A stretch of 64,000 nucleotides of DNA from Betaproteobacteria bacterium (GCA_039931685.1 JBDTRK010000005.1:564-64563); one strand, 5' to 3'. Shown: positions 4,667-19,135, counted from the first letter of the stretch. Program-made: numbers and translations. Notes: generated by a model from the sequence alone, not told the origin.

Positions 4667-5308
4667 TCATTGCGCGTCCGGCTGGTTCTGCGGCATCGCC
4701 TTCCTGAAAGGCTCAAGCGCCAGGCACTGCTCATTGATGCGCCGAATGGTGGGAAACAGCGCAAGGTCGACCTTGTACCGGTTTGCGTTGGCCACCTGCG
4801 GCACCAGCACGATGTCGGCAAACCCCGGCACATCGCCGTGGCAGAACCGCCCGGTATCCTTTTCCGTTGCCAGCCGCTTCTCCAGCGCCGTGAAGCCAAT
4901 CGTCACCCAATGCGCATACCAGGCATTTTTCTGTTCTTCGGTCAGTTTCAGCGTGTCGGTCAGATACGCCAGCACCCGCGTGTTGTTCAGCGGGTGGATT
5001 TCGCATGCGCTGATCAACGCCAGCGAGCGCACGCGGTTGCGGCCGCCGGCATCGCCCGGCAGCAGGGGTGGCCGCGGAAATTTCTCGTCGAGATAGTCGA
5101 TGATGGCCAACGACTGGTACAGGCGAGCGCCGTCGTGCTCCAGTACCGGCACCAGATTCTGTGGGCTGATGTCGGAAAATTCCGGCGTGTACTGTCTGCG
5201 CTTCATCAGGTGGATGCTGGATTGTTCGTAGTCGAGGCCCTTCATCGCCAGCGCGATGCGCACCCGGTAGGACGCGGAACTTCTGAAATAGCCGTAGAGT
5301 TTCAGCAT
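4667..5308 (-). CDS. maiA: zeta-class glutathione S-transferase: maleylacetoacetate/maleylpyruvate isomerase
   Basis: N-terminus MLKLYGYFRSSASYRVRIALAMKGLDYE carries the zeta-GST SSxSxRVRIAL signature. Length is 213 aa. Confidence 0.85.
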   Translation of the reverse strand: MLKLYGYFRSSASYRVRIALAMKGLDYEQSSIHLMKRRQYTPEFSDISPQNLVPVLEHDGARLYQSLAIIDYLDEKFPRPPLLPGDAGGRNRVRSLALISACEIHPLNNTRVLAYLTDTLKLTEEQKNAWYAHWVTIGFTALEKRLATEKDTGRFCHGDVPGFADIVLVPQVANANRYKVDLALFPTIRRINEQCLALEPFRKAMPQNQPDAQ

Positions 5309-5332
5309 TTTTTCTGCCCTGGTCTGCGCCTT

Positions 5333-6727
5333 TCAGCGAATCGAATTGAGCGCCCGATGACGCATCAGCATGCCGGCAGCCGTGCACATTTCCTCGGCAT
5401 CCGCGAACGTCGGCACGCCGGCCTGCTCCATTTGCGCGAACCAGGTCTGCCGATGTTCAAGTGTGCCCATCATGCAATGCAGGATCGGCAGCTTCGCTTT
5501 TTTGCATATTGCGGCGAGCACCTCGACAACTTCGCCGGCGTCGACCATGAATGGCACGACATGGATCATCAGGATCGCGTCGAAGTTCTCCGGCGCTGCT
5601 TCCAGCGCGGCCGCGAGCGTCGCTGAAAAACGATCCGCGCGCGCGTCGGCAAGCAAATCGATCGGGTTGGCCATCGACGCTTCGGCAGGCAGGAAACCGC
5701 GCAGCCTCTCCAGCATCGCGCCCGGCAATTCCGGCAGCGAGAGCCCCTCCTCCGTCGCCCGATCCGCGGCCAGCACGCCGGGGCCGCCGGAATTCGACAG
5801 CAATAAAACGCGCTTGCCGATGCCTTGCGCAAAACTGCCAAACGCCTTGCCCGCGAGCAGCAGGCTGCGCAGGCTATTGACCCGCACGATGCCGTTGCGG
5901 CGACAGAAGTCGTCCGTGGCCGCATCGTCACCCGGGCGCGATCCGGTATGGCGAAACGCCGCTTCGCGGCCAGCCGGCGTGCGTCCGCCGATCAGGGCAA
6001 TCACCGGCTTCGTTTTCGCCACCGCTCGCGCCACTTCGCCAAAGCGCAGCGCGTCGCCGAACGATTCGACGTAAAGCAGGATCGCGTTGCAGCGCGCATC
6101 GCGACCCAGTTCCTCCAGGTATTCGATGATGCCCAGGTGCATGCTGTTGCCGACCGACACCACGGCACCCAGCGGGATGTTGCTGGCATGGCTGGCTTCG
6201 ATGGCCTCTTCGATGATCGCGCCCGACTGCGAAATCATCGCCACGGATCCGCCTTTTGGCATGGCGCGGAAGAATGTCGCCGCGAACGGCGACTTCGGGT
6301 CGAGCAGGTTGATCACGCCCGCGCAATTCGGTCCGCCGATGGTCAGCCCGCGCGCAGCCGCGAGTTCGCGCAAGGCCAGATCGCGCGCCCGCCCGCTTTC
6401 TCCGGCTTCCGCGAAACCGCCCGGCAAAATCAGGATGTTCTTGTGACCGGTGTCGGCCGCCTCGGTGGCCACTTCGACGATGTTGTCCGGTCGCACCAGA
6501 ACCGCGACCAGGTCGACCGGCCCCTGCATTTGACTGAGGGACGCCACCACCTTGAGGCCGTCTATTTCACCGCCCTTGGGATTGACCGGGACAATGCGTC
6601 CGGTATAGCCCGACCGGCGCAAATTGCGCAACACCGCACCGCCCGAACTCGTCGGCCGCTCCCCCGCGCCCACCACCGCAATGCTGCGCGGGTTCAGAAA
6701 AGGGCTGATGGCGGATTTGGCCGGCAC
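5333..6727 (-). CDS. CoA-binding protein related to ADP-forming acetyl-CoA synthetase alpha part (no ATP-grasp part)
   Basis: FLNPRSIAVVGAGERPTSSGGAVLRNL...IVPVNPKGGEIDGL is a CoA-binding Rossmann fold. GGPNCAGVINL is present, as is RHTGS at the position of the phospho-His loop. Confidence 0.75.
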   Translation of the reverse strand: MPAKSAISPFLNPRSIAVVGAGERPTSSGGAVLRNLRRSGYTGRIVPVNPKGGEIDGLKVVASLSQMQGPVDLVAVLVRPDNIVEVATEAADTGHKNILILPGGFAEAGESGRARDLALRELAAARGLTIGGPNCAGVINLLDPKSPFAATFFRAMPKGGSVAMISQSGAIIEEAIEASHASNIPLGAVVSVGNSMHLGIIEYLEELGRDARCNAILLYVESFGDALRFGEVARAVAKTKPVIALIGGRTPAGREAAFRHTGSRPGDDAATDDFCRRNGIVRVNSLRSLLLAGKAFGSFAQGIGKRVLLLSNSGGPGVLAADRATEEGLSLPELPGAMLERLRGFLPAEASMANPIDLLADARADRFSATLAAALEAAPENFDAILMIHVVPFMVDAGEVVEVLAAICKKAKLPILHCMMGTLEHRQTWFAQMEQAGVPTFADAEEMCTAAGMLMRHRALNSIR

Positions 6728-6732
6728 CGGCT

Positions 6733-7905
6733 TCAGTCCCCGCGCAAGCGACGCGCGACATCGCGAAACGTATCGCGCGCGCCGAACCCGCCGGCTTTGG
6801 TCACCAGCAGGAGCGACTCCCCGTCGAGGCGGATGCGCGCGTAAGGAATACCGGGCATCAGGTCACCGAGGACTTGCAACGCCGGATTGCCGCTCGCCGC
6901 GAGAATGGCGATCGCCGTGTCGCCGCCGGTCGCGACCAGCGCCTCGGCCTGCGCGCGGCGGGCAATTTCGAGCGCATGATCCGCGATGGCGGCGGCGACA
7001 CGTTCTGCGTCGCCCTCGCGGCCGGCGTCGTCTGGCGTGGCCTTGAGTACAAGATTACGCGCGACCGGTAACTGCGCGTATTGCAGTCGCCCGTTGGGTG
7101 CGCGCAATACCTCGGTACCCGGTTCCCCAGCCAGGGATTCGACCTGCTCGGCGCTGCGCATGGCGCGCGAACCGACTGCGAACACGATGGCCCCGGTCAG
7201 ATGCGGCAGCGCGGGCGCCGGCTGGCGGTCGAAGCAAACCGACGCCAGCGCCGTGGTCAAACCCGCCGAACCAACCATCATCACACTACCCATGCGCGAC
7301 GCGAATGCCTGCACGATCCTGGTCAGATCGACGTCGACCTCACTGTCGGCAATCCAGACATCGGCTGCGGTGTCGAAGGAGGCGGAAGAGGCAACCGCGA
7401 CGACCCGCAGTCCGGATTTCGCCGCAGCGAAGGCTTCCCGCAATGGCGCCAGCGGCGGCGGCGACAGTGCATCCAGGGCAAACGCGGTCTGCGCGAGCGG
7501 CGTGCCATCGACGTGAACCACGCCGCCGCGCACGGTACGACCCTGCGCCGGGAAGGCGGCAGCGACCAGCGCCTGATGCCGGCCGCTGGCGTCGAGCAGC
7601 GCCATGGTCTCCGCGACGACGTTGCCCCGCAGGGTGGAATCGATTTTCTTGACGATGATGTCGAATCCGTCGCCACCCAGATGGCGCACGATTTCGCGCA
7701 CGCGCGCGGCAGCCTCGGCCGCCGGAAGATGGCGGCTGTCGGTATTGACGGAAACGACGCGGGCGGTTTGCAGCGACGCCGGATCGCAGCGTATCGGCAT
7801 GGCCACAACCCAGGTTTCGATGCCGAGCGCGGCGAAAGGTCCCGCAGCGTCCATTGCCCCGGTCAGATCATCGGCGACGATGAGTACACGGGGCTGGCGG
7901 CTCAT
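6733..7905 (-). CDS. four-carbon acid-sugar kinase family protein (DUF1537; DtnK/OtnK-like)
   Basis: N-terminus VLIVADDLTGAMDAAGPFA and C-terminus LVTKAGGFG are the two hallmark blocks of the DUF1537 kinase family. It lies next to a PdxA-family gene. Confidence 0.8.
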   Translation of the reverse strand: MSRQPRVLIVADDLTGAMDAAGPFAALGIETWVVAMPIRCDPASLQTARVVSVNTDSRHLPAAEAAARVREIVRHLGGDGFDIIVKKIDSTLRGNVVAETMALLDASGRHQALVAAAFPAQGRTVRGGVVHVDGTPLAQTAFALDALSPPPLAPLREAFAAAKSGLRVVAVASSASFDTAADVWIADSEVDVDLTRIVQAFASRMGSVMMVGSAGLTTALASVCFDRQPAPALPHLTGAIVFAVGSRAMRSAEQVESLAGEPGTEVLRAPNGRLQYAQLPVARNLVLKATPDDAGREGDAERVAAAIADHALEIARRAQAEALVATGGDTAIAILAASGNPALQVLGDLMPGIPYARIRLDGESLLLVTKAGGFGARDTFRDVARRLRGD

Positions 7906-7917
7906 CGGATCGCGCCT

Positions 7918-8898
7918 TCAGGCCGCAATGTGGTCCGCCATCTTGCGGGCATAGGCGATAGCCGCCTGCATGTTCACGTTGCTGGCCTTGCCGGTCCAGG
8001 CGATATCGTGCGCCGTGCCATGATCCACCGAAGTGCGGCGAATCGGCAGGCCGAGGCTGATATTCACGGTTTCGTCGAATGCGATCAGTTTGGTCGGAAT
8101 ATGGCCCTGGTCGTGGTATTGCGCGACGACCAGGTCGAACTCGCCCTTGAGCGCGCGGTAAAACACCGTATCGCCGGAAATGGGCCCCTTTACGTCGATG
8201 CCTTCCTTCTGCGCGATTTCGATTGCCGGCTGGATGCGTTCGATTTCCTCGCGCCCGAAAATGCCACCTTCGCCGCTGTGCGGGTTGAGACCGGCGACTG
8301 CGATGCGCGGTTTGTCGATGCCAAGTTCGCGGAAGTGCCGATGTCCGGCACGGATGGTCGCCACCACCCTGTCGATAGTCGGACGCTCGGCGGCATTCTT
8401 CAGCGACTGGTGCGTGGTGACGTGAATCGCGCACAGCTTGTCGCTCGCCAGCAGCATGAATGAGGACTTCGCCCCGGTCAGGTGTGCCAGCAATTCGGTG
8501 TGGCCATCGAAGTGGTGTCCGGCCGAGTGCATCGCGGCCTTGTTCAGCGGCGCGGTGACAATCACGGCAATTTTGCCATCGAGCGCCAGTTTGACGGCCT
8601 CTTCCACATATCGATAGGCCGCTTCGCCGCCGGCGGCGGAAATTTTGCCGTCTGCAATCTTGTCCTGGTCCTTGCTCGCGACATCCACGACAGGAACTTC
8701 GCCGTTTCTGGCGTCGAGTCCATCGACGAACTTCAGTCCGGTCCCCAGCAGTTTGTCGGCCCGTCGTAGCAAGGCGAGATTCCCCACCACGGCGGAAAGC
8801 GAACGCGTTGCCGGTGTCATCTGGGCAAGCGTCTTGACGATGATTTCCGGTCCGATGCCGGACGGATCGCCCATGGTAATGCCAATTTTTGCGGTCAT
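7918..8898 (-). CDS. pdxA2: PdxA-family NAD-dependent oxidative decarboxylase (4-phospho-D-threonate 3-dehydrogenase-like)
   Basis: GITMGDPSGIGPEI, TTHQSL, AGLNPHSGEGG and TSVDHGTAHDIAW match PdxA family blocks. The pdxA2 assignment is by context with the adjacent DUF1537 kinase. Confidence 0.8.
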   Translation of the reverse strand: MTAKIGITMGDPSGIGPEIIVKTLAQMTPATRSLSAVVGNLALLRRADKLLGTGLKFVDGLDARNGEVPVVDVASKDQDKIADGKISAAGGEAAYRYVEEAVKLALDGKIAVIVTAPLNKAAMHSAGHHFDGHTELLAHLTGAKSSFMLLASDKLCAIHVTTHQSLKNAAERPTIDRVVATIRAGHRHFRELGIDKPRIAVAGLNPHSGEGGIFGREEIERIQPAIEIAQKEGIDVKGPISGDTVFYRALKGEFDLVVAQYHDQGHIPTKLIAFDETVNISLGLPIRRTSVDHGTAHDIAWTGKASNVNMQAAIAYARKMADHIAA

Positions 8899-8959
8899 GC
8901 GATCCTTATGGTTTCAGAAAATACAGACAGGGAAATTATAGCCGAGAGACGCCGGGCGC

Positions 8960-9865
8960 TCAGGCTGCGCCATGCTCCTCGGGAGCCATGGCCACCCGCA
9001 CCTCCGCGGCCGTTGCAAGCTCACCGCCACTGTTGGCGATTTTACGCGCGGCGTCCTCGACCAGCTGCAGGTTGGACCGTTCACAGCCCCACACCGCATC
9101 TTCCAGCCCGACGCGCACGTGCCCCCCCTCCGCCACCGCGCGCGGGATCATCGGCAACATGTCGACTTGCAGCCCGGCCACCATCCACTGCGCGCCGGGT
9201 GCCACCTGGTCGAGCAATTTCAGATAGGCGGTGAGCGCATAATCTTCCGGCGGAAAGCTGAAGGTGTAGCCGCTGGAAAACATGAAGCGATACACCGGCG
9301 CCGGACAACTCTCGCGCCAGTGCAATGTCGCGCCCAGGCGCACAAATCCAGGCTCATAGATGGCGTAACTCGGGTGTAATCCGTAGCGCATGGCCAGCTT
9401 GAGCCCATGACGCACGTCCTGTTCCTGATTGAGATAGACGAATCCCGGTTTGTCCTCGCGTAATTCGTCATACAGCGAAAAATTGGTCGAGCCGGGATCG
9501 ACCGCCGCCCATTCGATCAACCCGCGTCGCGCCAGTTCCTCGACGTGCGCGAAACGCTGTTGTGCGGTCTGCACGCCCGATTCAGCGCCCAGGCCAGCAG
9601 CCGGAATCGTCGGGTAGACGATGGCGTCTACCTGGCTGCGAATGCCATCAATGATTCTGGCGTAGACATCCGCATCCTGTGTTTGTGTCGCGCTCGCCTC
9701 GTCATAGGCATGGGCATGGACGATGGACGCGCCCGCCTTGACGCAGGCGATGCCCTCTTCCACGATCTCCTTCACGGTCACCGGGATACGTGGTTGGGAG
9801 CGGCGTGTCCAGGCTCCGTTCAGCGCGACTTCCAGCCAGGTCTTGCCCTGCCCTGTTGCTTGCAT
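8960..9865 (-). CDS. 3-keto-5-aminohexanoate cleavage enzyme family protein (BKACE, DUF849)
   Basis: LEVALNGAW...PVTVKEIVEEGIACVKAGASIVHAH is the typical BKACE N-terminus. GHVRVGLED lies near the C-terminus. Confidence 0.8.
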   Translation of the reverse strand: MQATGQGKTWLEVALNGAWTRRSQPRIPVTVKEIVEEGIACVKAGASIVHAHAYDEASATQTQDADVYARIIDGIRSQVDAIVYPTIPAAGLGAESGVQTAQQRFAHVEELARRGLIEWAAVDPGSTNFSLYDELREDKPGFVYLNQEQDVRHGLKLAMRYGLHPSYAIYEPGFVRLGATLHWRESCPAPVYRFMFSSGYTFSFPPEDYALTAYLKLLDQVAPGAQWMVAGLQVDMLPMIPRAVAEGGHVRVGLEDAVWGCERSNLQLVEDAARKIANSGGELATAAEVRVAMAPEEHGAA

Positions 9866-9886
9866 ATTTTTCGTTATCCGGTTAAA

Positions 9887-10582
9887 TCAAACCAGCGTGA
9901 CAGCCAGTTCTCCCAGGCCCTCGATCGAGCCGAGCATCTGGTCGCCAATTTTCACGGCGCCGACCCCGGCCGGCGTTCCGGTGTAGATCAGGTCGCCGGG
10001 CTTGAGCAGGTAATACTGCGACAGGTAGGCAATCGTGTCCTGGACATTCCAGATCATTTCCTGGATATCCGCCTGCTGACGCATCTCGCCGTTGACCGTC
10101 AGGGAAATCCTGCCCGTCGAATGATGGCCGTGGCTCGAAACCGGATGGATCGCCGCGATCGGCGCGGACTCGTCGAAGGCCTTGCCGAAATCCCACGGCC
10201 GTCCCATGTCGCGCGCCTTGAATTGCAGGTCGCGACGGGTCATGTCCAGGCCCACCGCGTAGCCAAAGACGAATTCAAGCGCCTTGGCGGCCGGTATGTT
10301 GCGGCCCTCGCGCTCGATCGCCACCACCATCTCGATTTCATGATGCAGGTTTTCCGTGCCGGGCGGGTAATGCATCTTGCCGCCGCCCGGCAGCACCGCA
10401 TCGGCCGGCTTGAGAAAGAAAAACGGCGGCTCTTTTTCCGGATCCTTGCCCATTTCCCGCGCATGGGCGGCGTAATTGCGGCCAACGCAATATATGCGGT
10501 GCACCGGGAAGCGTTCCTTGCGGCCGACGATCGGTACGGACGGCACCGGGCCGATACCGAACAACAATTCATTTTCGTTCAT
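9887..10582 (-). CDS. fumarylacetoacetate hydrolase family protein (likely fumarylpyruvate hydrolase)
   Basis: ATG at 10582 (MNENELLFGI...). FAH blocks are RIYCVGRNYAAHAREMG, FFFLKP, HHEIEMVVAI and PGDLIYTGTPAGVG. The track start at 10672 is an extension. Confidence 0.85.
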   Translation of the reverse strand: MNENELLFGIGPVPSVPIVGRKERFPVHRIYCVGRNYAAHAREMGKDPEKEPPFFFLKPADAVLPGGGKMHYPPGTENLHHEIEMVVAIEREGRNIPAAKALEFVFGYAVGLDMTRRDLQFKARDMGRPWDFGKAFDESAPIAAIHPVSSHGHHSTGRISLTVNGEMRQQADIQEMIWNVQDTIAYLSQYYLLKPGDLIYTGTPAGVGAVKIGDQMLGSIEGLGELAVTLV

Positions 10583-10723
10583 GGCTGAATAATTGAGAGT
10601 CAGAAAAGAAGGTTGGTCCGCGAGTGCCAGACAGCAGGCCGTCGGCCGCGAACAAGGCGTATTTTTGCACAAATGGCGTGAAGTTCTCCGCGGCCGGCCG
10701 CCAGCACTGGCGCGCGCCGCGGC

Positions 10724-11767
10724 TTATTGCAGCTGTTCCTCCCGCCACAGGCCCAGCGCCCGCTGCACCGGCCGGTCCGAGAAACTGAACAATACCGTCT
10801 GTTCCGACGCGTACAGCGCGTAGGCTTGCCAGGAAGGCACGACGAAGGTGTCGCGTGCCGAAAATTCAAAACTCTCGCCGCCGATCACGGCACGCCCGCT
10901 TCCCTCGATCACCGAGAAAACGCTGCCGTCCGTGCTGCGATAAGGCAGCCCGCTGAATCCCTTGGGCAGCAACTGGATATAGGCACCCATCGTCGGCATG
11001 GCGGCGCCGCCGCTCGCCGGATTGACGAATTCCATCTTGTGGCCATGGCTCGCATGCGGTTTATCGACGCGGGCAAGTTGCATCAGGCTTTCGCGCGACC
11101 GCGAATAGGGGTAGGCGAACACTGGCGAAGTCGCATCCTTCGGCTGGAAAGCGATTGGCAGCAGGTTGTTGCCGTAACGCAGCCAGGCGTCGCCTTCCGG
11201 GCGCACCACTTCCTGTTCCTCGCGTGGGTATTCCTCGGCGAATCCGGCATCGAAAAAACGCACCAGCGGTATGTCGAGGCCATCGAGCCAGACCACCGGT
11301 TCGTCCGCCGCATTGCCATGGTCGTGCCATGTCCACGATGGCGTGATGATGAAATCGCCGGGATGCATGGTCACGCGCTCCCCGTCGACCGCGGTATAGG
11401 CGCCGGTACCTTCGACGATCAGTCGCAACGCGGTCTGCGTATGGCGGTGGCTCGGCGCCACTTCGCCGGGAAGGATCAGTTGCCAGCCGGCGTAAAGCGA
11501 ATTCGTGATCGCTGACTGGCCGGGAATCCCCGGGTTCTCGAGAATCAGCACGCGCCGCACCGCTTCCTTCGCCGTGATCAGGCTGCCCGACTCCATCAGC
11601 CAGGGCCGCACTTGCGCGTATTTCCAGATGGCCGGCAGGCAGGGCGATTTCGGCTGGCGCGGCACCAGGGCACTCATCATTTCCCACAGCGGCGTCAGAT
11701 GCGCCGGCGCAATGCGGCGGTAATATGCCTCCCGCTCCGCGCGGGGGTCCTTCTGCGTCTGGCCCAT
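10724..11767 (-). CDS. gentisate 1,2-dioxygenase (bicupin)
   Basis: 347 aa. LTPLWE, the first cupin motif PGEVAPSHRHTQTALRLIVEG and the second cupin VFSVIEGSG are characteristic of gentisate dioxygenases. Confidence 0.85.
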   Translation of the reverse strand: MGQTQKDPRAEREAYYRRIAPAHLTPLWEMMSALVPRQPKSPCLPAIWKYAQVRPWLMESGSLITAKEAVRRVLILENPGIPGQSAITNSLYAGWQLILPGEVAPSHRHTQTALRLIVEGTGAYTAVDGERVTMHPGDFIITPSWTWHDHGNAADEPVVWLDGLDIPLVRFFDAGFAEEYPREEQEVVRPEGDAWLRYGNNLLPIAFQPKDATSPVFAYPYSRSRESLMQLARVDKPHASHGHKMEFVNPASGGAAMPTMGAYIQLLPKGFSGLPYRSTDGSVFSVIEGSGRAVIGGESFEFSARDTFVVPSWQAYALYASEQTVLFSFSDRPVQRALGLWREEQLQ

Positions 11768-11812
11768 GTCCCGCCTCCTTGATGCACCGATCCCGTTACG
11801 GCGTCGCCATTA

Positions 11813-12523
11813 TCACGACGTCTGGATTTTCGGCAAAGTCAATCCAAAATCCTTCTCGACCAGTTCGGTGACGCGCGACAGAAAATCGGCGCGCATCTCG
11901 TCGTTGCTGCGGCTCTTCAGGCCCCAGCGCAGATAGATCTCATTGTTTTTCGACTTGCTGGCGCCGAAAAATCCCGGCGTGATGGGATAGTAACGGTTGA
12001 TCGCATCCTGCACCGCCGCCTTGCCCGGCTCGGTAGCGATCAATTCCATGCAGAAATCCTTGCCGAACTTGGCATGGAATTTCTCCTCCGGCATGGTTAT
12101 GCGCGCCAGGTCGCGCAGCGGATGAAAGGAGCAGTGCAGCAAGTCTTCGACCTGGAGAATCTCGGCATAGTCGGCAATCGCCTTGATCACGCAGAATTCC
12201 GGCCACGTCTTCAACTGGAACCCGAATATCGTCAGCGGTTTTTTGATTTTTGGATCCATCATTTCCGCCGGCACTCCGATCTGCTCCGCCAGCCCGCGGA
12301 AACGAATATGGTGATGGTACTCCTCCATCGCCACGCGGCAGGTCAGCCATTTCGCGTAAGGCGAAGGTGCCAGCGCGATGGCGGGCTCGTCGAATACCTG
12401 CGCGCCGTACAACTCGTTCACGGCATGGCTGATGACGATTTTCCTGACGGCGGTCTGGTATTCCTCCGGCTGTTGCGCGAACTCGGCCGCGGTTTTCACG
12501 GCAAAGGTGGCGGTTGCAGTCAT
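11813..12523 (-). CDS. PaaA-like ferritin-fold di-iron oxygenase subunit (phenylacetic-acid catabolic protein family)
   Basis: Full E...ExxH...E...ExxH set: NELYG, MEEYHHH, VEDLLH, PEEKFHAKF. The C-terminal WGLKSRSNDEMRADFLSRV...GLTLP resembles the PaaA C-terminus. I chose ATG at 12523; a TTG at 12538 is also possible. Confidence 0.7.
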   Translation of the reverse strand: MTATATFAVKTAAEFAQQPEEYQTAVRKIVISHAVNELYGAQVFDEPAIALAPSPYAKWLTCRVAMEEYHHHIRFRGLAEQIGVPAEMMDPKIKKPLTIFGFQLKTWPEFCVIKAIADYAEILQVEDLLHCSFHPLRDLARITMPEEKFHAKFGKDFCMELIATEPGKAAVQDAINRYYPITPGFFGASKSKNNEIYLRWGLKSRSNDEMRADFLSRVTELVEKDFGLTLPKIQTS

Positions 12524-12534
12524 GAATGCACCTC

Positions 12535-13467
12535 TCAAACGATCGGTTCGGTATTGAAATATTCGAGGTCGGTGGCGAGATCGGTGAACCCGCTTCCCAA
12601 CTCGGCGTTGATGGCCAGCGCCAGTGCGGCTTCATCCCACTCGCCTGCGGCCGCCATGAGCGTTCGCGCGACCGGACGCGGTTGCGAAAACAACAGCAGT
12701 TCGCGCCCGCGCACGCCAAACAACTGGCCGGTGACCGCGTTCGCGTCCGCACTCAACAAGGCCGCCAGCCTGGCCACATAGTGCGCAGGCACCCGCAGCG
12801 CGCGCGCCTTGTAAGAAGCCTGGGCATCATTGGCCGGCAGGATGGATTCGGTCACCCGCGTAGCGGCGAACGGCGCAATCGCATTGCAGGTGACGTTTGA
12901 GCGCGACATATCCATCGCGACCACGCGCGTGAGCCCGACCAGTCCAGCCTTGGCCGAGGCATACGCCGACTGTCCGAAATTACCGAACAATCCGGCGCTC
13001 GAGACGATATTGACGATGCGTCCGGGCGCGCGGCCGGACTTTTGCTGCTCGCGCATCAATGGCGTGGCCGCCGCGAGCAGCGCGAATGGTGCGGTCAGAT
13101 TGGTGGCGACGACTTTTTCCCAGTTGTCGCGGCTCGCCTTGAAAATGAAACCGTCGCGCAGAATCGCCGCGTTGTTGATGACGATGTCGATCGCCCCGAA
13201 CGCCTTGACGACGCTCTGCACGGCGCGCTCCGGGACACCGGCAACGGCCAGGTCTTCGCCAAACGCGAGCGCGCGGGCGCCGAGCTTGGCCGCAAGAGAT
13301 TCGGCAAGCGCGGGGTCAGGCTCGGTGCCGGCGATCGATACGCCGCTGTCGGCGATGAGTATCGCGGCGCCGCGGCGGTGCAATTCCTCGACGATCGCCA
13401 GCCCGATGCCGCGCGCGCCGCCGGTTACGATCGCAACCCTGCCCGCCAAGGTCTGTGCCACGCTCAT
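12535..13467 (-). CDS. SDR-family oxidoreductase with about 60-aa C-terminal extension (MFE-2-type hydroxyacyl-CoA dehydrogenase-like)
   Basis: TGGARGIG cofactor motif, NNAAI, and the catalytic YASAKAG (YxxxK). 4-nt overlap with the upstream reductase gene. Confidence 0.8.
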   Translation of the reverse strand: MSVAQTLAGRVAIVTGGARGIGLAIVEELHRRGAAILIADSGVSIAGTEPDPALAESLAAKLGARALAFGEDLAVAGVPERAVQSVVKAFGAIDIVINNAAILRDGFIFKASRDNWEKVVATNLTAPFALLAAATPLMREQQKSGRAPGRIVNIVSSAGLFGNFGQSAYASAKAGLVGLTRVVAMDMSRSNVTCNAIAPFAATRVTESILPANDAQASYKARALRVPAHYVARLAALLSADANAVTGQLFGVRGRELLLFSQPRPVARTLMAAAGEWDEAALALAINAELGSGFTDLATDLEYFNTEPIV

Positions 13468-14519
13468 CGTGCCTCCGCCATTTTTTCAGGATTCTCCGCA
13501 GCCGGAAAAAAAGCATCGGCATGGATATCGCGGGATTCGACGCCCCGCTCGCGCACCAGCGTGGTCGCTGCATCGACCATGGGCGGCGGCCCCGCGAAAT
13601 AGGCCTTGAATCCCGCGAGCGATGCAAAATCCGCCGCAACCGCATCGGTAACCAGGCCGTTTCTTCTTGGCAGCAAGGTCGCCCGGGACTGCGCAACGCC
13701 TTCGGACAACACGATGTGCGCCTTGAAGCCGGGATGTCGTTGCTGCAATGCGGCCAATTCCGCCTCGAAGTAAACGTCGCGCTCGGCGCGCACGCCGAAA
13801 TACAGGTGCAGCGGCCGCCCGAAGCCACCGACCAGTGCCGCCTCGATGATTGATTTGATCGGCGCCAGGCCACTGCCGCCGGCAATACATAGCATCGCAC
13901 CGGAGTGTTGCGCGCGCAGGTACGACGTGCCGAGCGGACCGGCGACCCTGACCATGCCCCCTGGGTGCAGCCCCCTCGCGACGCGGCCGCTCACCGAATT
14001 TGCAGCGGGCATGACGCGAATGTGGAACTCGAGCAGTTTCTCATCCGGCCGGTTTGCCATGGAATAGTCGCGGGCCTGGCCGGGCGCGAATGGAAACTCA
14101 AGGCTGGCAAACTGTCCCGCGGAAAACACGAAGGGTCCACCAGAGATAATTTCCAGCCTGAGCCTGAGAATGTCATGCGTAAGTGCCGTCACGTCGGTCA
14201 CCTTGCAGCCCAGTATGCGCGAGGGATGCACGACAAACTCTTCGGCGTCGAGCCGGCGCACGACGACATCGCTCCACACCTGCGACCGGCACGCGAGCAC
14301 GATGCCGCGGCCGCGTTCGGCGGCCGACAGCGCGTGTTCGGAGTATTCGAGCTCCATGATGTCGCCGGATACGAACTCGCAACGGCAGGTTCCACAATTG
14401 CCGGCCTGGCAGCTGTAGGCAAAACCGACACCGTGCGCGAGCAAGGCGTCTAGCACGGTTTGGCCTTCCTCGGCCGGGACGCTCTGGTTCAGATCGGCGA
14501 CGGTGACGGTCAGGCTCAC
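13464..14519 (-). CDS. [2Fe-2S] ferredoxin-FAD/NAD(P)H oxidoreductase (N-terminal ferredoxin; MmoC/DmpP/BenC architecture)
   Basis: Plant-type cluster motif CQAGNCGTCRC...C, FAD motif RDYSMAN, NAD motif MLCIAGGSGLAP. GTG at 14519 (VSLTVTVADL) was chosen; the track start TTG at 14570 would nearly abut marR. Confidence 0.8.
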   Translation of the reverse strand: MSLTVTVADLNQSVPAEEGQTVLDALLAHGVGFAYSCQAGNCGTCRCEFVSGDIMELEYSEHALSAAERGRGIVLACRSQVWSDVVVRRLDAEEFVVHPSRILGCKVTDVTALTHDILRLRLEIISGGPFVFSAGQFASLEFPFAPGQARDYSMANRPDEKLLEFHIRVMPAANSVSGRVARGLHPGGMVRVAGPLGTSYLRAQHSGAMLCIAGGSGLAPIKSIIEAALVGGFGRPLHLYFGVRAERDVYFEAELAALQQRHPGFKAHIVLSEGVAQSRATLLPRRNGLVTDAVAADFASLAGFKAYFAGPPPMVDAATTLVRERGVESRDIHADAFFPAAENPEKMAEAR

Positions 14520-14563: not shown

Positions 14564-15070
14564 ATGCCAAGTATGGGAAGCAAACCGTTGGATGTCAAAC
14601 AATCGCGCCGCGCGGGCCAAGGTCGCGCGGCGCCGGACCGCGAACCGCCGGATCTGGGGGTATTGACCGGCCTGATCGGCTACCAGCTGCGGCTGGCGCA
14701 GCGCGCGATATTTGCCGATTTCGCCGACACGGTTGGCACTGACGGTATCTCGCCGGGGCTGTTCGGCATCCTCGTCGTCATCGGGCAAAACCCAGGACTG
14801 ACCCAGCAGGCACTGGCCAATGCCGCCCATCTGGACCGCTCCAGCGTCGTAACCGTGATCGACAAGCTTGAAGACCGCGGCCTGGTGGAGCGCCGCGCAG
14901 CCGACCGGCGCAGCAACGGGCTGTTCCTGGCGGCCAAGGGCGCCGCACTGTTGCGCGGCCTGAAGCGCAAGGTGACGCAGCACGAACGCCGGGTTGTCCA
15001 GAAACTTTCCTCGCACGAGCGCGCCCAATTGATCGAACTGCTGCAGCGCATCCTGCCGGAACGGCGCTGA
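14564..15070 (+). CDS. MarR-family transcriptional regulator
   Basis: ATG at 14564 (or 14573). Winged-helix block GLTQQALANAAHLDRSSVVTVIDKLEDRGLVERR. Divergent from the oxygenase cluster. Confidence 0.75.
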   Translation: MPSMGSKPLDVKQSRRAGQGRAAPDREPPDLGVLTGLIGYQLRLAQRAIFADFADTVGTDGISPGLFGILVVIGQNPGLTQQALANAAHLDRSSVVTVIDKLEDRGLVERRAADRRSNGLFLAAKGAALLRGLKRKVTQHERRVVQKLSSHERAQLIELLQRILPERR

Positions 15071-15083
15071 CCCGGAGACCGCC

Positions 15084-16166
15084 ATGGCCCGAAAACCTGT
15101 CAACCGCAAGAAGCCGTTTCGCCCGCGTGGCAAAACACCCGGACTGCCGCCGGGTTCGCTGGTCTACGGTGGGGACACGCTGGCGCTGCCGCGCGTGACC
15201 ATGCTCGACTACGATGAAAACAGGGTCGTCGAGAAGGAACTGGCACGGGTCGACGACTGCATCCCGTTCAAGGATGCCCAGACCGTGACCTGGATCAACG
15301 TCGAGAACATCGCACAGCCTGGACTGCTGGAGAACTTCGGGCGGGTCATGGGTTTCCATGCGCTGATGCTCGAAGACATTCTCCACACCGACCAGCGGCC
15401 CAAATTCGAGGATTACGGCAATTACATTTACATCACCGTAAAAATGCTCGACTACGACAGCGCCAAGGATGGAATCGAAATCGAGCAGCTATCGCTGGTT
15501 CTTGGACCGAACTACGTCATTTCCTTCCAGGAACGCGCCGGGGATTTCTTCGATCCGCTGCGCGAGCGCATACGCAAATCCCTCGGACGCGTACGCAAGA
15601 TGGGCAGCGACTATCTGGCCTATGCCATTCTGGACATCATCGTCAACCACTATTTCGTGGTGCTGGAGAAACTCGGCGAGAAAATAGACAAACTCGAAGA
15701 CGTCGTGATCGACAACCCCGGTCAGGACACGGTGCGCGCGGTACATGCCGTCAAGCGCGAGATGATCTTCGTGCGCAAATCCACCTGGCCCCTGCGCGAA
15801 GTCGTGACCAGCCTGCAGCGTTCGGAATCGGCACTGGTGCGCGAATCGAACGCCGCCTACTATCGTGACCTGCACGACCACATCATGCAGGTCACCGATA
15901 GCGTGGACACGTTTCGCGACCTGCTCAACGGCATGCTCGACTCCTATTATTCGACCATCACCACGCGCACCAACAGTGTCATGAAAGTGCTGACGCTGTT
16001 TTCCGCGATTTTCATGCCGCTGACCTTCATTACCGGCATTTTCGGCATGAACTTCCGGAACTTTCCGGAACTCGAATGGCGCTACGGATTTCAGGGCTCG
16101 CTGATCCTGATGGTGACCGTGATTCTCGGCATGGTCGTGATGTTCAAGTGGAAAAAATGGTTATAG
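15084..16166 (+). CDS. corA: magnesium/cobalt transporter CorA
   Basis: 360 aa, C-terminal two TM helices with the GMN motif (GIFGMNF). Confidence 0.9.
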   Translation: MARKPVNRKKPFRPRGKTPGLPPGSLVYGGDTLALPRVTMLDYDENRVVEKELARVDDCIPFKDAQTVTWINVENIAQPGLLENFGRVMGFHALMLEDILHTDQRPKFEDYGNYIYITVKMLDYDSAKDGIEIEQLSLVLGPNYVISFQERAGDFFDPLRERIRKSLGRVRKMGSDYLAYAILDIIVNHYFVVLEKLGEKIDKLEDVVIDNPGQDTVRAVHAVKREMIFVRKSTWPLREVVTSLQRSESALVRESNAAYYRDLHDHIMQVTDSVDTFRDLLNGMLDSYYSTITTRTNSVMKVLTLFSAIFMPLTFITGIFGMNFRNFPELEWRYGFQGSLILMVTVILGMVVMFKWKKWL

Positions 16167-16235: not shown

Positions 16236-16649
16236 TCAGTCCGTCTCTGGGACACGGCCGCGCGCGCGTTTGAGGCTTGCGCGCGTGCGCTTTCCGGCGA
16301 TGCGCCGCTCCTTCGAGGCGCGTGTCGGACGTGTCGCGATGCGTCTTTTCGGTTTTTCCGACGCAGCCTGCAGCAATCGCGTCAGCCGGCCCAGCGCATC
16401 GCGCCGGTTCGCTTCCTGCGTGCGAAAACGCCCGGCATCGATGACCAGCACGTCCTGGATGCTGACGCGCCTGCCGCCAAGCCGGCGCAGGCGTGACTTG
16501 ACGTCTTCGGCCAGCGAGTTACTGGCGCCGATGTTGAAGCGCAATTCCACCGCGGTGGACACCTTGTTGACGTTCTGTCCTCCAGGCCCGGAAGCCCGCA
16601 CGTGCCGGAACTCCAGTTCTGCCTCGGGTATCGGGAAGTCACGCAACAC
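16236..16649 (-). CDS. arfB: alternative ribosome-rescue factor ArfB (peptidyl-tRNA hydrolase, YaeJ)
   Basis: 137 aa, ASGPGGQNVNKVSTAV GGQ motif plus a basic C-terminal tail. Confidence 0.85.
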   Translation of the reverse strand: MLRDFPIPEAELEFRHVRASGPGGQNVNKVSTAVELRFNIGASNSLAEDVKSRLRRLGGRRVSIQDVLVIDAGRFRTQEANRRDALGRLTRLLQAASEKPKRRIATRPTRASKERRIAGKRTRASLKRARGRVPETD

Positions 16650-16941: not shown

Positions 16942-18687
16942 ATGAAACGATGGACGTATAAGGGGGTCGCAAAGACCCTGTCCGCAGTCGCTTTCGTCGG
17001 TATCGCATCCCAGGCACTGGCAGGAGATGTCACCTGGGATCGGCTGATGAACGCGGACAAGGACGCCAACAATTGGCTCATGTACCACCAGTCCTTCAAG
17101 GGCTGGCATTACAGCGGGCTGGACCAGGTCAACGCAGACAACGTCAAGAACCTGCACGTTGCGTGGTTGCATACACCGTCTGCCAGCAAGCGCGGCATTC
17201 AGTCCTTCCCGCTGGCTGTTGACGGCGTGCTCTACTACACCAGCTCGTCGGGCCAGGTTTGGGCATTGGACGGTGCGACCGGGGCGGTGATCTGGCGCTA
17301 TCAGGCCAAGATCGACACCGAGCGCGCAGAAGGAACGTTCTACAACCCTTACAACCGCGGTCTGGCCATCGGCTACGGCAAGGTCTACATCGGCACCGTT
17401 GACGGCCGCATGATCGCCCTCGACGCAAAGAACGGCAAAGTGGTCTGGGACAACACCATCCTCAGCGTAGAAAAAGGCAACAAGGGCTTCACAGGCGCAC
17501 CCGTGATCGTGAAAGACAAGGTCATCATCGGTTCGAACGGCGGCGAGCTGTCCGGCTGCTGCGGCCCGATTTTCGCAGTCAACGCGCAGACCGGCGAAGT
17601 GGCATGGCAATTCGACACCATCGGTGGCGACGAGCGTTCCCGCCAGTCCTGGGGCAACGATTCGTGGAAAATCGGCGGCGGCGGTGGCTGGATGACGGGT
17701 TCCTATGACCCGAAGACCAACACCGTATGGTGGGGTACCGCCAATCCGGCACCCGACTATGACTATGCCGGCGATAACTGGAAAACCGACGGCCCGCGTC
17801 CTGGCGATAACCTCTACAGCTCCTCAGTAGTGGTTCTGGATGCAGACTCCGGCGAACTGAAGTCCTACTTCCAGGAAATGCCGCATGACGCTTGGGACTT
17901 TGATGCGGCACCCGGCGAATTTGTGACCCTCGACAAGGGCGGCAAGCATTACATGCTGCACCCGAACAAGGGCGGCATCATTTTCGTCTACAACGCAGAT
18001 CAGGTTGGCGGCGGCAACCAGCTGAAGGTGGAAAACGCCTACATGCTGGGTGAGACCTACAACTACATCAAGGGTGTGGATCCCAAGACCGGCCAGCTCA
18101 TCGGCCGTCGCGACCTGCCCGAAGGCAAGCATACCAATGTCTGCCCGGCCATTGACGGGGCGATCAGCTGGAACACCGGTTCGTTCAACCCGGGAACCGG
18201 CCTGTACTACAAGATCGGCCAGGAATGGTGCTTCGACATCGAAGTGGTGAAGGCAGACCGTCCGGCTGATTTCTCCGGCCAGGCCTACTTCGGCGCTTCG
18301 TGGACGGCGACCCACCCGCAAGGCAAGAAGGCGTACGGCCATGTGACCGGCCGCGACCCGCTGTCCGGCAAGATCAAGTGGCGTACCGAGTTCAAGTACC
18401 CGCCGCTGGCCTCGCTGATGTCGACCAAGGGTAACCTGGTATTCGTGCCAGGCGCTGACGGCAACTTCCACGCACTCGATGCCCGTACCGGCAAAGAACT
18501 GTGGAAGTTCAACAACGGCATCGGCCACCACGGCGGCGTAATCTCCTACATGGCAGGCGGCAAGCAGTACATCGCCGTCGTGTCCGGTTGGGGCAGCCAC
18601 GTGTCGGGCAACTACGGCCCGCTGTTCGGCCATCCGTTCACGGAAATGCCGACAGATGCAGGCCAGTTGGTTGTATTCAGCCTGTAA
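16942..18687 (+). CDS. PQQ-dependent alcohol dehydrogenase, methanol/ethanol family, atypical clade
   Basis: Signal peptide, NWLMYHQSFKGWHYSGLDQVNADNVKNL, repeated W-motif propeller blades, and the WDFD active-site block. GGAGAG lies 5 nt upstream of the ATG. Confidence 0.85.
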   Translation: MKRWTYKGVAKTLSAVAFVGIASQALAGDVTWDRLMNADKDANNWLMYHQSFKGWHYSGLDQVNADNVKNLHVAWLHTPSASKRGIQSFPLAVDGVLYYTSSSGQVWALDGATGAVIWRYQAKIDTERAEGTFYNPYNRGLAIGYGKVYIGTVDGRMIALDAKNGKVVWDNTILSVEKGNKGFTGAPVIVKDKVIIGSNGGELSGCCGPIFAVNAQTGEVAWQFDTIGGDERSRQSWGNDSWKIGGGGGWMTGSYDPKTNTVWWGTANPAPDYDYAGDNWKTDGPRPGDNLYSSSVVVLDADSGELKSYFQEMPHDAWDFDAAPGEFVTLDKGGKHYMLHPNKGGIIFVYNADQVGGGNQLKVENAYMLGETYNYIKGVDPKTGQLIGRRDLPEGKHTNVCPAIDGAISWNTGSFNPGTGLYYKIGQEWCFDIEVVKADRPADFSGQAYFGASWTATHPQGKKAYGHVTGRDPLSGKIKWRTEFKYPPLASLMSTKGNLVFVPGADGNFHALDARTGKELWKFNNGIGHHGGVISYMAGGKQYIAVVSGWGSHVSGNYGPLFGHPFTEMPTDAGQLVVFSL

Positions 18688-18784
18688 TCGAACTGCTGCA
18701 GTAAAGCGTTAAGTGCGGGCGGGGGAGCGATCCCTCGCCCGTTTGTTATTCGATCAGACTCACCGCCCTCTTGCGGAGAAACAA

Positions 18785-19135
18785 ATGAAAGCATCACGCA
18801 GCAAGAAATTCGCCCTACTCATCGCGTTGATTGCGGGACTGACGGCCATGTCCGCTTATGCCCAGGATCCGACCGATGAGGTCGCAGCCAAGATCGATGA
18901 AAAATTCGGCGGCAACATCAAGAAGCTTTTTGCGACGAGATGCAGTTGGTGCCACCAGGGTTACGGCATGAAGCAAGCCGACGGGCCCAAACTCGCCGGC
19001 ACCAGCAAGTCCGTGGCGCAAGTCATGGCGCAGATCATGAACGGCAAGACACCGATGCCCGGATTCAAAAACCAGCTGTCGTTCGAGCAAGTTCAGGCTC
19101 TCGCCGAATACATCAAGGCGCTCCCCGGCAGTTGA
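18785..19135 (+). CDS. exported mono-haem c-type cytochrome (probable electron acceptor of the PQQ dehydrogenase)
   Basis: ATG at 18785 follows GGAGA. Signal peptide FALLIALIAGLTAMSAYA. One CxxCH (CSWCH) and a distal Met (KTPMPGF). Confidence 0.75.
   Translation: MKASRSKKFALLIALIAGLTAMSAYAQDPTDEVAAKIDEKFGGNIKKLFATRCSWCHQGYGMKQADGPKLAGTSKSVAQVMAQIMNGKTPMPGFKNQLSFEQVQALAEYIKALPGS

Follow-up and report, generated by a model that had tools for sequence, protein, structure and literature searches.

The subject of this study is a group of three genes lying at positions 11813-14519 on the minus strand of a 64-kilobase (kb) stretch of DNA from a Betaproteobacteria bacterium, the whole of which is referred to below as the window. 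The first of these genes codes for an NAD(P)H:[2Fe-2S] reductase of class IB similar to BenC and MmoC (13464-14519; 351 amino acids (aa) from a GTG start vs 348-349 aa in its relatives), the second for a 310-aa short-chain dehydrogenase/reductase (SDR) with a C-terminal extension, of the MFE-2/(3R)-hydroxyacyl-CoA (coenzyme A) dehydrogenase type (12535-13467), and the third for a short PaaA-like di-iron oxygenase of 236 aa (11813-12523), all three on the minus strand. The stop codon of the reductase gene overlaps the start codon of the SDR gene (ATGA), and the SDR gene is predicted to be translationally coupled to it. The SDR stop lies 11 nucleotides (nt) from the ATG of the di-iron gene, whose own stop is followed after 45 nt by the ATG of a gentisate 1,2-dioxygenase gene with a good ribosome-binding site (AAGGAGG). 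The trio comes first in an operon-like cluster of ten genes (4667-14519) that lie on one strand with short spacers. The open reading frames (ORFs) and domains of the trio are as given in a preliminary description of this DNA, which had correctly placed the three genes at the head of a cluster, but had overlooked its extent to position 4667 and the CoA enzyme encoded within it.

Related loci were collected by a scan with one genome per species, which yielded 542 loci, and the best 80 of these were compared, with their genes mapped by tblastn using the window proteins together with same-strand ORFs in the gaps. Nearly all of the 80 are from metagenome-assembled genomes (MAGs) of uncultured Burkholderiales/Betaproteobacteria, while the remainder include Sulfurifustis, Acidiferrobacteraceae, several Alphaproteobacteria and Uliginosibacterium. 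Synteny was counted over 65 or 71 loci for the trio, the regulator and the dioxygenase, and over the 41 loci with full flanks for the downstream genes. In 65/65 loci the reductase and SDR genes immediately precede the di-iron gene, and this repetition indicates that the arrangement of the trio is not due to chance. A divergent MarR-family gene is present in 64/65 loci, and the gentisate dioxygenase gene lies downstream of the di-iron gene in 68/71, so that the linkage of the module to this dioxygenase, first seen in the window, extends to its relatives.

Sequence profile analysis of the di-iron protein showed that it passes the gathering cut-off of the PaaA_PaaC superfamily model PF05138 (81.7 bits vs 28.5), and fails the PaaA equivalog TIGR02156 (85.5 bits vs a cut-off of 280), the BoxB model TIGR03225 (17 bits vs 499) and the PaaC model. 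A HMMER search against 1.84 billion representative sequences recovered only a compact family, while a word-indexed search found more than 2000 homologues, all of which, where named, are called 'PaaA' or 'phenylacetic acid catabolic protein'. In a neighbor-joining tree the window protein falls into a clade of its own, to which a small group of proteins of roughly 250 aa is sister, and both are part of a radiation of short PaaA-like proteins of 235-260 aa that stands apart from canonical PaaA (300-340 aa) and PaaC. An AlphaFold2 model built with 38 homologues is confident (pLDDT 92.5), and a Foldseek comparison of this model with the PDB gave PaaA as the best match (template modeling score by query, TMq, 0.85-0.89), followed by the uncharacterized SSO1313 (4mud), PaaC and BoxB. 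The comparison with the PaaA, PaaC and BoxB families that the preliminary description had proposed thus upholds its view of a protein that is PaaA-like and yet not PaaA, and the protein did not cluster with any family of known non-aromatic function. In a separate observation, a Phyllobacterium plasmid (L089:8604-9359) was found to carry canonical paaABCDE and, after paaE, a further gene for a protein of 251 aa, named 'phenylacetic acid catabolic protein', that groups in the tree with other short PaaA-like proteins and not with PaaA or PaaC.

Residue-by-residue alignment to Escherichia coli PaaA, together with the published ligand list of that enzyme (E42/E72/H75/D126/E155/H158; PMC4498308), assigns the di-iron ligands to E37, E68, H71, D118, E147 and H150, all of which are invariant in the family alignment of 38 sequences. 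The complete di-iron site that had been read earlier from the sequence is therefore present with all six ligands, but one of its motifs had been misassigned: VEDLLH, taken as the third ligand motif, lacks conservation across the wider family and its E126 and D127 align to V134 and A135 of PaaA, the true third ligand being D118 in the motif IADYAE. One representative of the family (P0123) has MEALQHH in place of MEEYHHH and hence lacks the iron ligand E68; it may be a non-catalytic paralogue or a product of sequencing error.

The reductase displays, in terms of Pfam domains, an N-terminal plant-type Fer2 domain with the motif C37QAGNCGTC, followed by FAD_binding_6 and NAD_binding_1. As had been noted before, this is the opposite of the order in PaaE, where an FNR-like N-terminus precedes a C-terminal [2Fe-2S] domain (PMC4498308). 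Its best NCBIfam matches are BenC, MmoC and AntC, and its best relatives in the PDB are the GcoB-type P450 reductase, CarAd, BenC and T4moF, with BoxA giving a weak match of 24.9 bits. The SDR retains intact TGGARGIG, NNAA, SSAG and YASAK motifs, including the catalytic S156 and Y169xxxK173, and finds as its best PDB relative the (3R)-hydroxyacyl-CoA dehydrogenase of MFE-2 (2et6, E = 9e-65), followed by 3oml, 1zbq and 1gz6. By its motifs, extension and nearest similarity it belongs, as far as sequence can place it, among the MFE-2-type (3R)-hydroxyacyl-CoA dehydrogenase SDRs.

The partners of canonical PaaA were missing, as the preliminary description had stated: tblastn with reference PaaB, PaaC and PaaD recovered none of the three in the 64-kb window, and no homologues of them were found in the 80 related loci. 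Given the database name 'PaaA', the cluster might be viewed as a functionless remnant of a paa operon that has decayed after the loss of PaaB, PaaC and PaaD. This appears extremely improbable and was rejected, given the more than 2000 homologues with conserved ligands and length, a clade separate from PaaA and PaaC, strict synteny across classes of Proteobacteria, a reductase of a different type from PaaE, and the occurrence of related sequences in metatranscriptomes.

Beyond the trio the cluster, all of it on the minus strand, codes for a gentisate 1,2-dioxygenase (10724-11767; TIGR02272, 545.9 bits vs a cut-off of 442), an FAH-family hydrolase (9887-10582; PF01557) that is presumed to be a fumarylpyruvate hydrolase, and, as its last gene, a GST-zeta isomerase (4667-5308; TIGR01262 maiA, 274 bits vs a cut-off of 171) that is presumed to be a glutathione-dependent maleylpyruvate isomerase. 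These three supply a complete gentisate ring-cleavage set, and as the dioxygenase and FAH genes stand at one side and the GST-zeta gene at the end, the genes of the gentisate pathway bracket the cluster. Among the 41 loci with full flanks the FAH gene is present in 38 and the GST-zeta gene in 30. No genes for the alpha/beta hydroxylases or effectors of soluble multicomponent di-iron monooxygenases occur in the cluster. In 26/41 relatives a protein of ~170 aa that has no match in Pfam is encoded between the dioxygenase and FAH genes (e.g. L004:11952-12479, L078:12074-12577, L081:8728-9297 and L085:11731-12252). It ends in a conserved G-x-WP-L/I-G motif and is absent from the window, in which a spacer of 141 nt (10583-10723) occupies this place. 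It is weakly related (E = 1e-4) to proteins of 192-194 aa whose genes overlap the 3' end of the di-iron homologues in actinomycete nonribosomal peptide synthetase (NRPS) clusters, and possibly assists the oxygenase as an accessory or assembly factor.

The CoA enzyme of the window is a 464-aa protein resembling the alpha part of ADP-forming acyl-CoA synthetases (hereinafter COAB; 5333-6727), which combines CoA_binding_2, Succ_CoA_lig and Ligase_CoA_2 domains, conserves the phospho-histidine motif H260TGS and is encoded in 33 of the 41 loci with full flanks. A search for its ATP-grasp partner that took in the cluster and 10 other ORFs of the window detected none. Comparison of the relatives shows that any two of COAB, an AMP-forming ligase and a 4HBT thioesterase are found together in one locus or another, the window having COAB alone. 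Thus, L077 lacks COAB and has an AMP-forming ligase (best models: 3-hydroxybenzoate-CoA ligase HbdA and the benzoate-CoA ligase family) along with a 4HBT-class thioesterase; L078 and L084 combine COAB with a 4HBT thioesterase; and in L035 (18631-19740) and L056 (9459-10217) an AMP-forming gene resembling benzoate/3-hydroxybenzoate-CoA ligases directly follows COAB, although in L056 no more than about half of the query is covered, and this match may be fragmentary. Class I of the 4HBT family includes the characterized gentisyl-CoA thioesterase BH1999, whose gene belongs to a cluster for gentisate in B. halodurans (PMC516016). ADP-forming synthetases are reversible, and given that COAB substitutes for either ligase or thioesterase across the relatives, it may both load and unload CoA. 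The possible CoA dependence raised in the preliminary description finds real support in the COAB gene in the cluster, in the ligase and 4HBT thioesterase genes in relatives, and in the action of the related PaaA, BoxB and MFE-2 enzymes on CoA esters, PaaA and BoxB accepting CoA thioesters only.

The variation in these genes also bears on the possibility that the trio hydroxylates a free aromatic acid, such as salicylate or 3-hydroxybenzoate, without CoA, the nearby CoA genes serving some other purpose. Oxygenases acting on free aromatics do use reductases of this type (BenC, AntC, T4moF and GcoB), and tblastn found neither an AMP ligase nor a thioesterase in the window. However, the nearest characterized relatives, PaaA, BoxB and MFE-2, use CoA esters, and genes for CoA activation or release accompany the module in nearly every variant as well as in the sister and actinomycete clades, on account of which a CoA-free reaction appears quite improbable.

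The more distant homologues of the di-iron protein show similar associations. In L092, where the di-iron homologue is 50% identical to that of the window, the gene order is thioesterase, SDR, DUF4279, di-iron gene, GDO-like cupin and PaaK-like ligase, and in L093 it is SDR, di-iron gene and PaaK-like ligase; the SDRs of both are full-length orthologues of the window SDR with 44% identity. In the sister clade (L086:1850-14268; also L087 and L088) the short PaaA-like gene is paired with a Fer2-FAD-NAD reductase of the same type and an AMP ligase, in the company of genes for an alpha/beta hydrolase, MaoC dehydratases, thiolases, an enoyl-CoA hydratase, an aldehyde dehydrogenase and an acyl-CoA dehydrogenase. 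This beta-oxidation-like cluster looks like a second uncharacterized CoA-dependent oxygenase pathway, as judged by its gene content. In Streptosporangium and in Spirillospora/Actinomadura (L091:10001-15034 and L095:10001-15767) a homologue lies beside a gene of the benzoate-CoA ligase family, a PabC-like gene, a fused PabAB and large NRPS genes. The proximity of the benzoate-CoA ligase family gene and PabAB/PabC points to benzoyl-type thioesters as the class of substrate, and suggests that the actinomycete enzyme might hydroxylate a p-aminobenzoyl thioester in the biosynthesis of a natural product.

Embedded between the FAH and COAB genes are three further genes, which encode a BKACE-family beta-keto-acid cleavage enzyme (8960-9865; PF05853), a PdxA-family dehydrogenase (7918-8898; PF04166; TIGR00557, 349.9) and a DUF1537 kinase (6733-7905) with SBD_N/NBD_C domains, whose best match, to D-threonate kinase, is below the cut-off. 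In the loci with full flanks they are found in 31, 33 and 32 cases, respectively. Relatives among the Gamma- and Alphaproteobacteria lack all three while retaining the other genes, and BKACE alone is absent from L012, L024 and L030. Given that relatives can lack them while keeping the rest, they appear to be an accessory insertion, and a role as core steps of the pathway was rejected in view of their absence from the distant relatives. The same observation counts against a different explanation of the trio, under which it would act on a non-aromatic or side-chain acyl-CoA, with beta-hydroxylation and dehydrogenation yielding a beta-keto-acyl-CoA for BKACE, and would merely share a regulon with the gentisate genes. 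An SDR of beta-oxidation type, the presence of BKACE in the same operon, and the beta-oxidation-like surroundings of the sister clade would all be in keeping with this. Nevertheless, BKACE is dispensable, being missing in 10/41 full loci in which the trio and dioxygenase stay. The core has neither a hydratase nor a thiolase, the dioxygenase comes immediately after the di-iron gene in 68/71 loci, and the partners that vary are aryl-CoA ligases and 4HBT-class aromatic thioesterases. A non-aromatic substrate is thus very improbable.

The above-described contextual associations make it probable, with some reservation, that the cluster specifies a CoA-thioester-dependent peripheral route that delivers an aromatic acid to gentisate ring cleavage. 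From the gene content, folds, metal ligands and synteny, and from the operator and promoter described below, we infer the catalytic steps, their substrate and the dual role of COAB as follows. An aryl carboxylate would first be converted to its CoA thioester, by COAB in the window and by an AMP-forming enzyme resembling benzoate/3-hydroxybenzoate-CoA ligases in some relatives. The di-iron protein, receiving electrons from NAD(P)H via its dedicated reductase, would then oxygenate the ring of the aroyl-CoA at the positions beta/gamma to the thioester; among the known enzymes, PaaA acts at C1-C2 of phenylacetyl-CoA and BoxB at C2-C3 of benzoyl-CoA (PMC4498308). Next, the MFE-2-like SDR would oxidize the resulting beta-hydroxy (dihydro) intermediate to the ortho-phenol of gentisyl-CoA, following which a 4HBT thioesterase would remove CoA in some relatives, and COAB, working in reverse, presumably would do so in the window. 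Finally, the gentisate 1,2-dioxygenase, GST-zeta isomerase and FAH hydrolase would convert gentisate to fumarate and pyruvate. As the substrate we favor benzoyl-CoA, with salicylyl-CoA, 3-hydroxybenzoyl-CoA and 4-hydroxybenzoyl-CoA as alternatives. The invariable, coupled SDR suggests one O2-dependent and one NAD-dependent oxidation, which fits benzoyl-CoA, whereas the plain hydroxylation of a phenolic CoA ester needs no dehydrogenase.

On chemical reasoning, the simplest form of this scheme would run via an epoxide, a rather doubtful route in which benzoyl-CoA 2,3-epoxide, formed as by BoxB, would undergo SN2' addition of water at C5 to give 2,5-dihydro-2,5-dihydroxybenzoyl-CoA, which the SDR would aromatize to gentisyl-CoA by oxidizing the beta-hydroxyl. 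One oxygen would come from O2 and one from water, and with COAB both loading and unloading CoA there would be no net cost in ATP. If true, a single O2-dependent step would provide two hydroxyls, and the missing enzymology would be found for a route from benzoyl-CoA to gentisate that was reportedly described in the 1990s and never resolved genetically.

Several observations weigh against this CoA-dependent route. The role given to the SDR comes from chemical reasoning only, and a direct aromatic hydroxylation would need no SDR; the actinomycete homologues have none, and L092 and L093 lack an adjacent reductase. The absence of an AMP ligase and a thioesterase from the window, along with that of an ATP-grasp partner from the cluster, leaves both activation and release to COAB. 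Furthermore, the BKACE, PdxA-like and DUF1537 genes between FAH and COAB are unexplained by the pathway, and the contigs from metatranscriptomes represent pieces of related genes only, none of them spanning a gene junction.

In an alternative reading, the di-iron enzyme and reductase act as a plain monooxygenase on an already hydroxylated CoA ester, candidates for which are 3-hydroxybenzoyl-CoA (attacked at C6), salicylyl-CoA (attacked at C5) and 4-hydroxybenzoyl-CoA (with an NIH shift). What is left to the SDR would then be a side role, such as maintaining the hydroquinone in its reduced state or taking the structural place of PaaC/PaaB. Known CoA routes to gentisate begin with salicylate or 4-hydroxybenzoate (PhgABC; BH1999 thioesterase), the ligase of L077 scores best as the 3-hydroxybenzoate-CoA ligase HbdA, and, beside the SDR-free actinomycete homologues, the requirement of PaaA for a non-catalytic partner (PMC4498308) would be in line with this. 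On the other hand, the cofactor motif and catalytic Ser-Tyr-Lys of the SDR are intact, and its gene is present in 65/65 loci, translationally coupled, and co-conserved with the di-iron gene at identities as low as 44-50%. A gene that is invariable, coupled and co-conserved over such deep divergence is more in keeping with a catalytic step than with an accessory role, and we therefore regard the plain monooxygenase as possible but less likely than the route with a dehydrogenation step.

Comparison with known systems helps to define what is distinctive about this module. It shares with PaaABC(D)E of E. coli and Pseudomonas the fold, the six di-iron ligands and the PF05138 domain, PaaA being the best match in both sequence and structure. 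Probably common to both, too, are the use of a CoA thioester as substrate and a [2Fe-2S] flavoprotein reductase driven by NAD(P)H. The module differs in lacking PaaB, PaaC and PaaD, in the reversed domain order of the reductase, in its obligatory SDR partner, and in a product that goes to gentisate cleavage and not to oxepin ring opening. The di-iron protein itself has 236 aa in place of the about 309 aa of PaaA and ends at around PaaA residue 245. The C-terminal roughly 65 residues are thus missing, and the window protein would on this account be without the Leu286 'door' segment over the substrate pocket; in addition, Lys68 of the 'lysine bridge' of PaaA aligns to Val64. BoxB of the BoxAB system is likewise a structurally related di-iron oxygenase, which acts on benzoyl-CoA without a PaaC-like structural subunit and provides a precedent for oxygenating the ring beta/gamma to the thioester. 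However, BoxB has about 470 aa, BoxA is a [4Fe-4S] flavoprotein (PMC4498308), and in the Box pathway the ring is opened hydrolytically via BoxC without gentisate ever being formed.

CoA-dependent routes to gentisate are represented by PhgABC of Brevibacillus, whose three genes (ligase, hydroxylase, thioesterase) convert 4-hydroxybenzoate to gentisate via the CoA ester with an NIH shift, and reportedly by SdgABC/CehGHI, with a salicylyl-CoA 5-hydroxylase. SdgC is a flavoprotein, and a flavin-dependent benzoyl-CoA 3-monooxygenase is another member of these CoA-ester routes. They resemble the present system, along with BH1999, in the succession of ligase, hydroxylation on the CoA ester, 4HBT gentisyl-CoA thioesterase and gentisate dioxygenase, such thioesterases being encoded in L077, L078, L084 and L092. 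PhgABC and SdgABC are described without a dedicated reductase or SDR, and it is by these descriptions, not by hydroxylase sequences, that the window system is set apart from them; it further has the ADP-forming synthetase-like COAB in place of an AMP ligase and thioesterase. The combination of an oxygenase, a Fer2-FAD-NAD reductase and an SDR that re-aromatizes a dihydro-diol is reminiscent of BenABC with BenD, BenC being the best NCBIfam match of the window reductase. Nevertheless, the oxygenase in the window has a di-iron site in a ferritin fold and is not a Rieske alpha3beta3 enzyme, its substrate is probably a CoA ester, its SDR is MFE-2-like and not BenD-like, and the product would be a para-diol (gentisate) rather than catechol. 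With the soluble multicomponent di-iron monooxygenases (methane monooxygenase, MMO, and toluene/phenol hydroxylases) only the reductase type is shared, as they possess a roughly 500-aa alpha subunit with beta (gamma) subunits and an effector. No description of this gene set was recovered by a full-text literature search, the coverage of which did not extend to key older papers. Apparently, it is undescribed, and represents another form of the theme of hybrid pathways known from PaaA and BoxB.

With respect to regulation, a gene for a 165-aa MarR-family protein (14573-15070, plus strand, or from an alternative ATG at 14564; PF01047/PF12802) diverges from the trio. Its best NCBIfam match is the Saro_0803 family at 87.7 bits, which is below the cut-off. 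The preliminary description had placed it about 44 nt from the trio, and the divergent arrangement stands, although the distance from the reductase start is 44 or 53 nt depending on the choice of ATG. Upstream of the reductase gene lies a sigma-70-like promoter on the minus strand (14570-14598; TTGACA, 17 nt, CATACT; 10/12 matches), the positions of which are kept across the relatives and the -10 box of which overlaps the start codon of the MarR gene on the opposite strand. The -35 box is overlapped by a palindrome, TTGTTTGACATCCAACGG (14585-14602, minus strand), presumed to be the MarR site. Its consensus is TTGTTTGACATCCAACAG, and in L055 the palindrome is perfect (TTGTTGGATATCCAACAA). The window contains a single copy, where 0.02 would be expected by chance, and 61/64 of the aligned intergenic regions between the MarR and reductase genes have the palindrome. 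An inverted-repeat search of the intergenic region of the window by itself detected only GC-rich repeats inside marR, and it was the comparison of 64 loci from which the operator emerged. In some loci this operator lies over the first codons of marR while in others it is purely intergenic; its presence regardless of such overlap indicates that its conservation is not a by-product of coding. The layout is as expected for repression of a catabolic operon by MarR together with autoregulation, in which MarR bound to this predicted operator would repress transcription until displaced by an aromatic ligand or an aryl-CoA. Co-transcription of the cluster is suggested by the spacing and the single conserved promoter. 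In L020 and L036 an insertion of 220-290 bp with terminal inverted repeats, GTGTCCTGTTCCGCTGATTCG ... CGAATCAGCGGAACAGGACAC, separates the promoter/operator from the reductase start, and looks like a miniature inverted-repeat element.

On the other side of the regulator the window encodes CorA (15084-16166), a peptide-release-factor-like ArfB/RF-1 domain protein (16236-16649, minus strand), an XoxF-type pyrroloquinoline quinone (PQQ) dehydrogenase (16942-18687) and a cytochrome c (18713-19135). Related MAGs keep these neighbors, which indicates a chromosomal location of the cluster rather than one on an obvious mobile element. A tblastn search of a plasmid collection found only canonical paaA at ~30% identity, and no close relative on a studied catabolic plasmid. 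The window sequence was found in metagenomes from sediment, soil and rhizosphere and in none of the RNA runs; two metatranscriptomes contained fragments, each of less than 310 nt, that are 80-90% alike.

Aerobic 'hybrid' pathways that proceed via CoA-activated aromatics are known mainly in the form of Paa and Box, both of which open the ring non-oxygenolytically. The module described here would, if the proposed route is true, define a third design, in which a minimal PaaA-like oxygenase, a BenC-type reductase and an obligatory dehydrogenase feed the dioxygenolytic gentisate pathway. With more than 2000 homologues and 542 species-level loci, mostly from uncultured Burkholderiales of soil, rhizosphere and sediment, it is widespread, and a share of the turnover of benzoate, salicylate or hydroxybenzoates may for this reason be mislabeled as 'PaaA / phenylacetate catabolism'. 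It would also offer a potential small two-component scaffold for the regioselective hydroxylation of aroyl-CoA, and the homologues in actinomycete NRPS clusters suggest that the same type of enzyme decorates (amino)benzoyl units in natural products.

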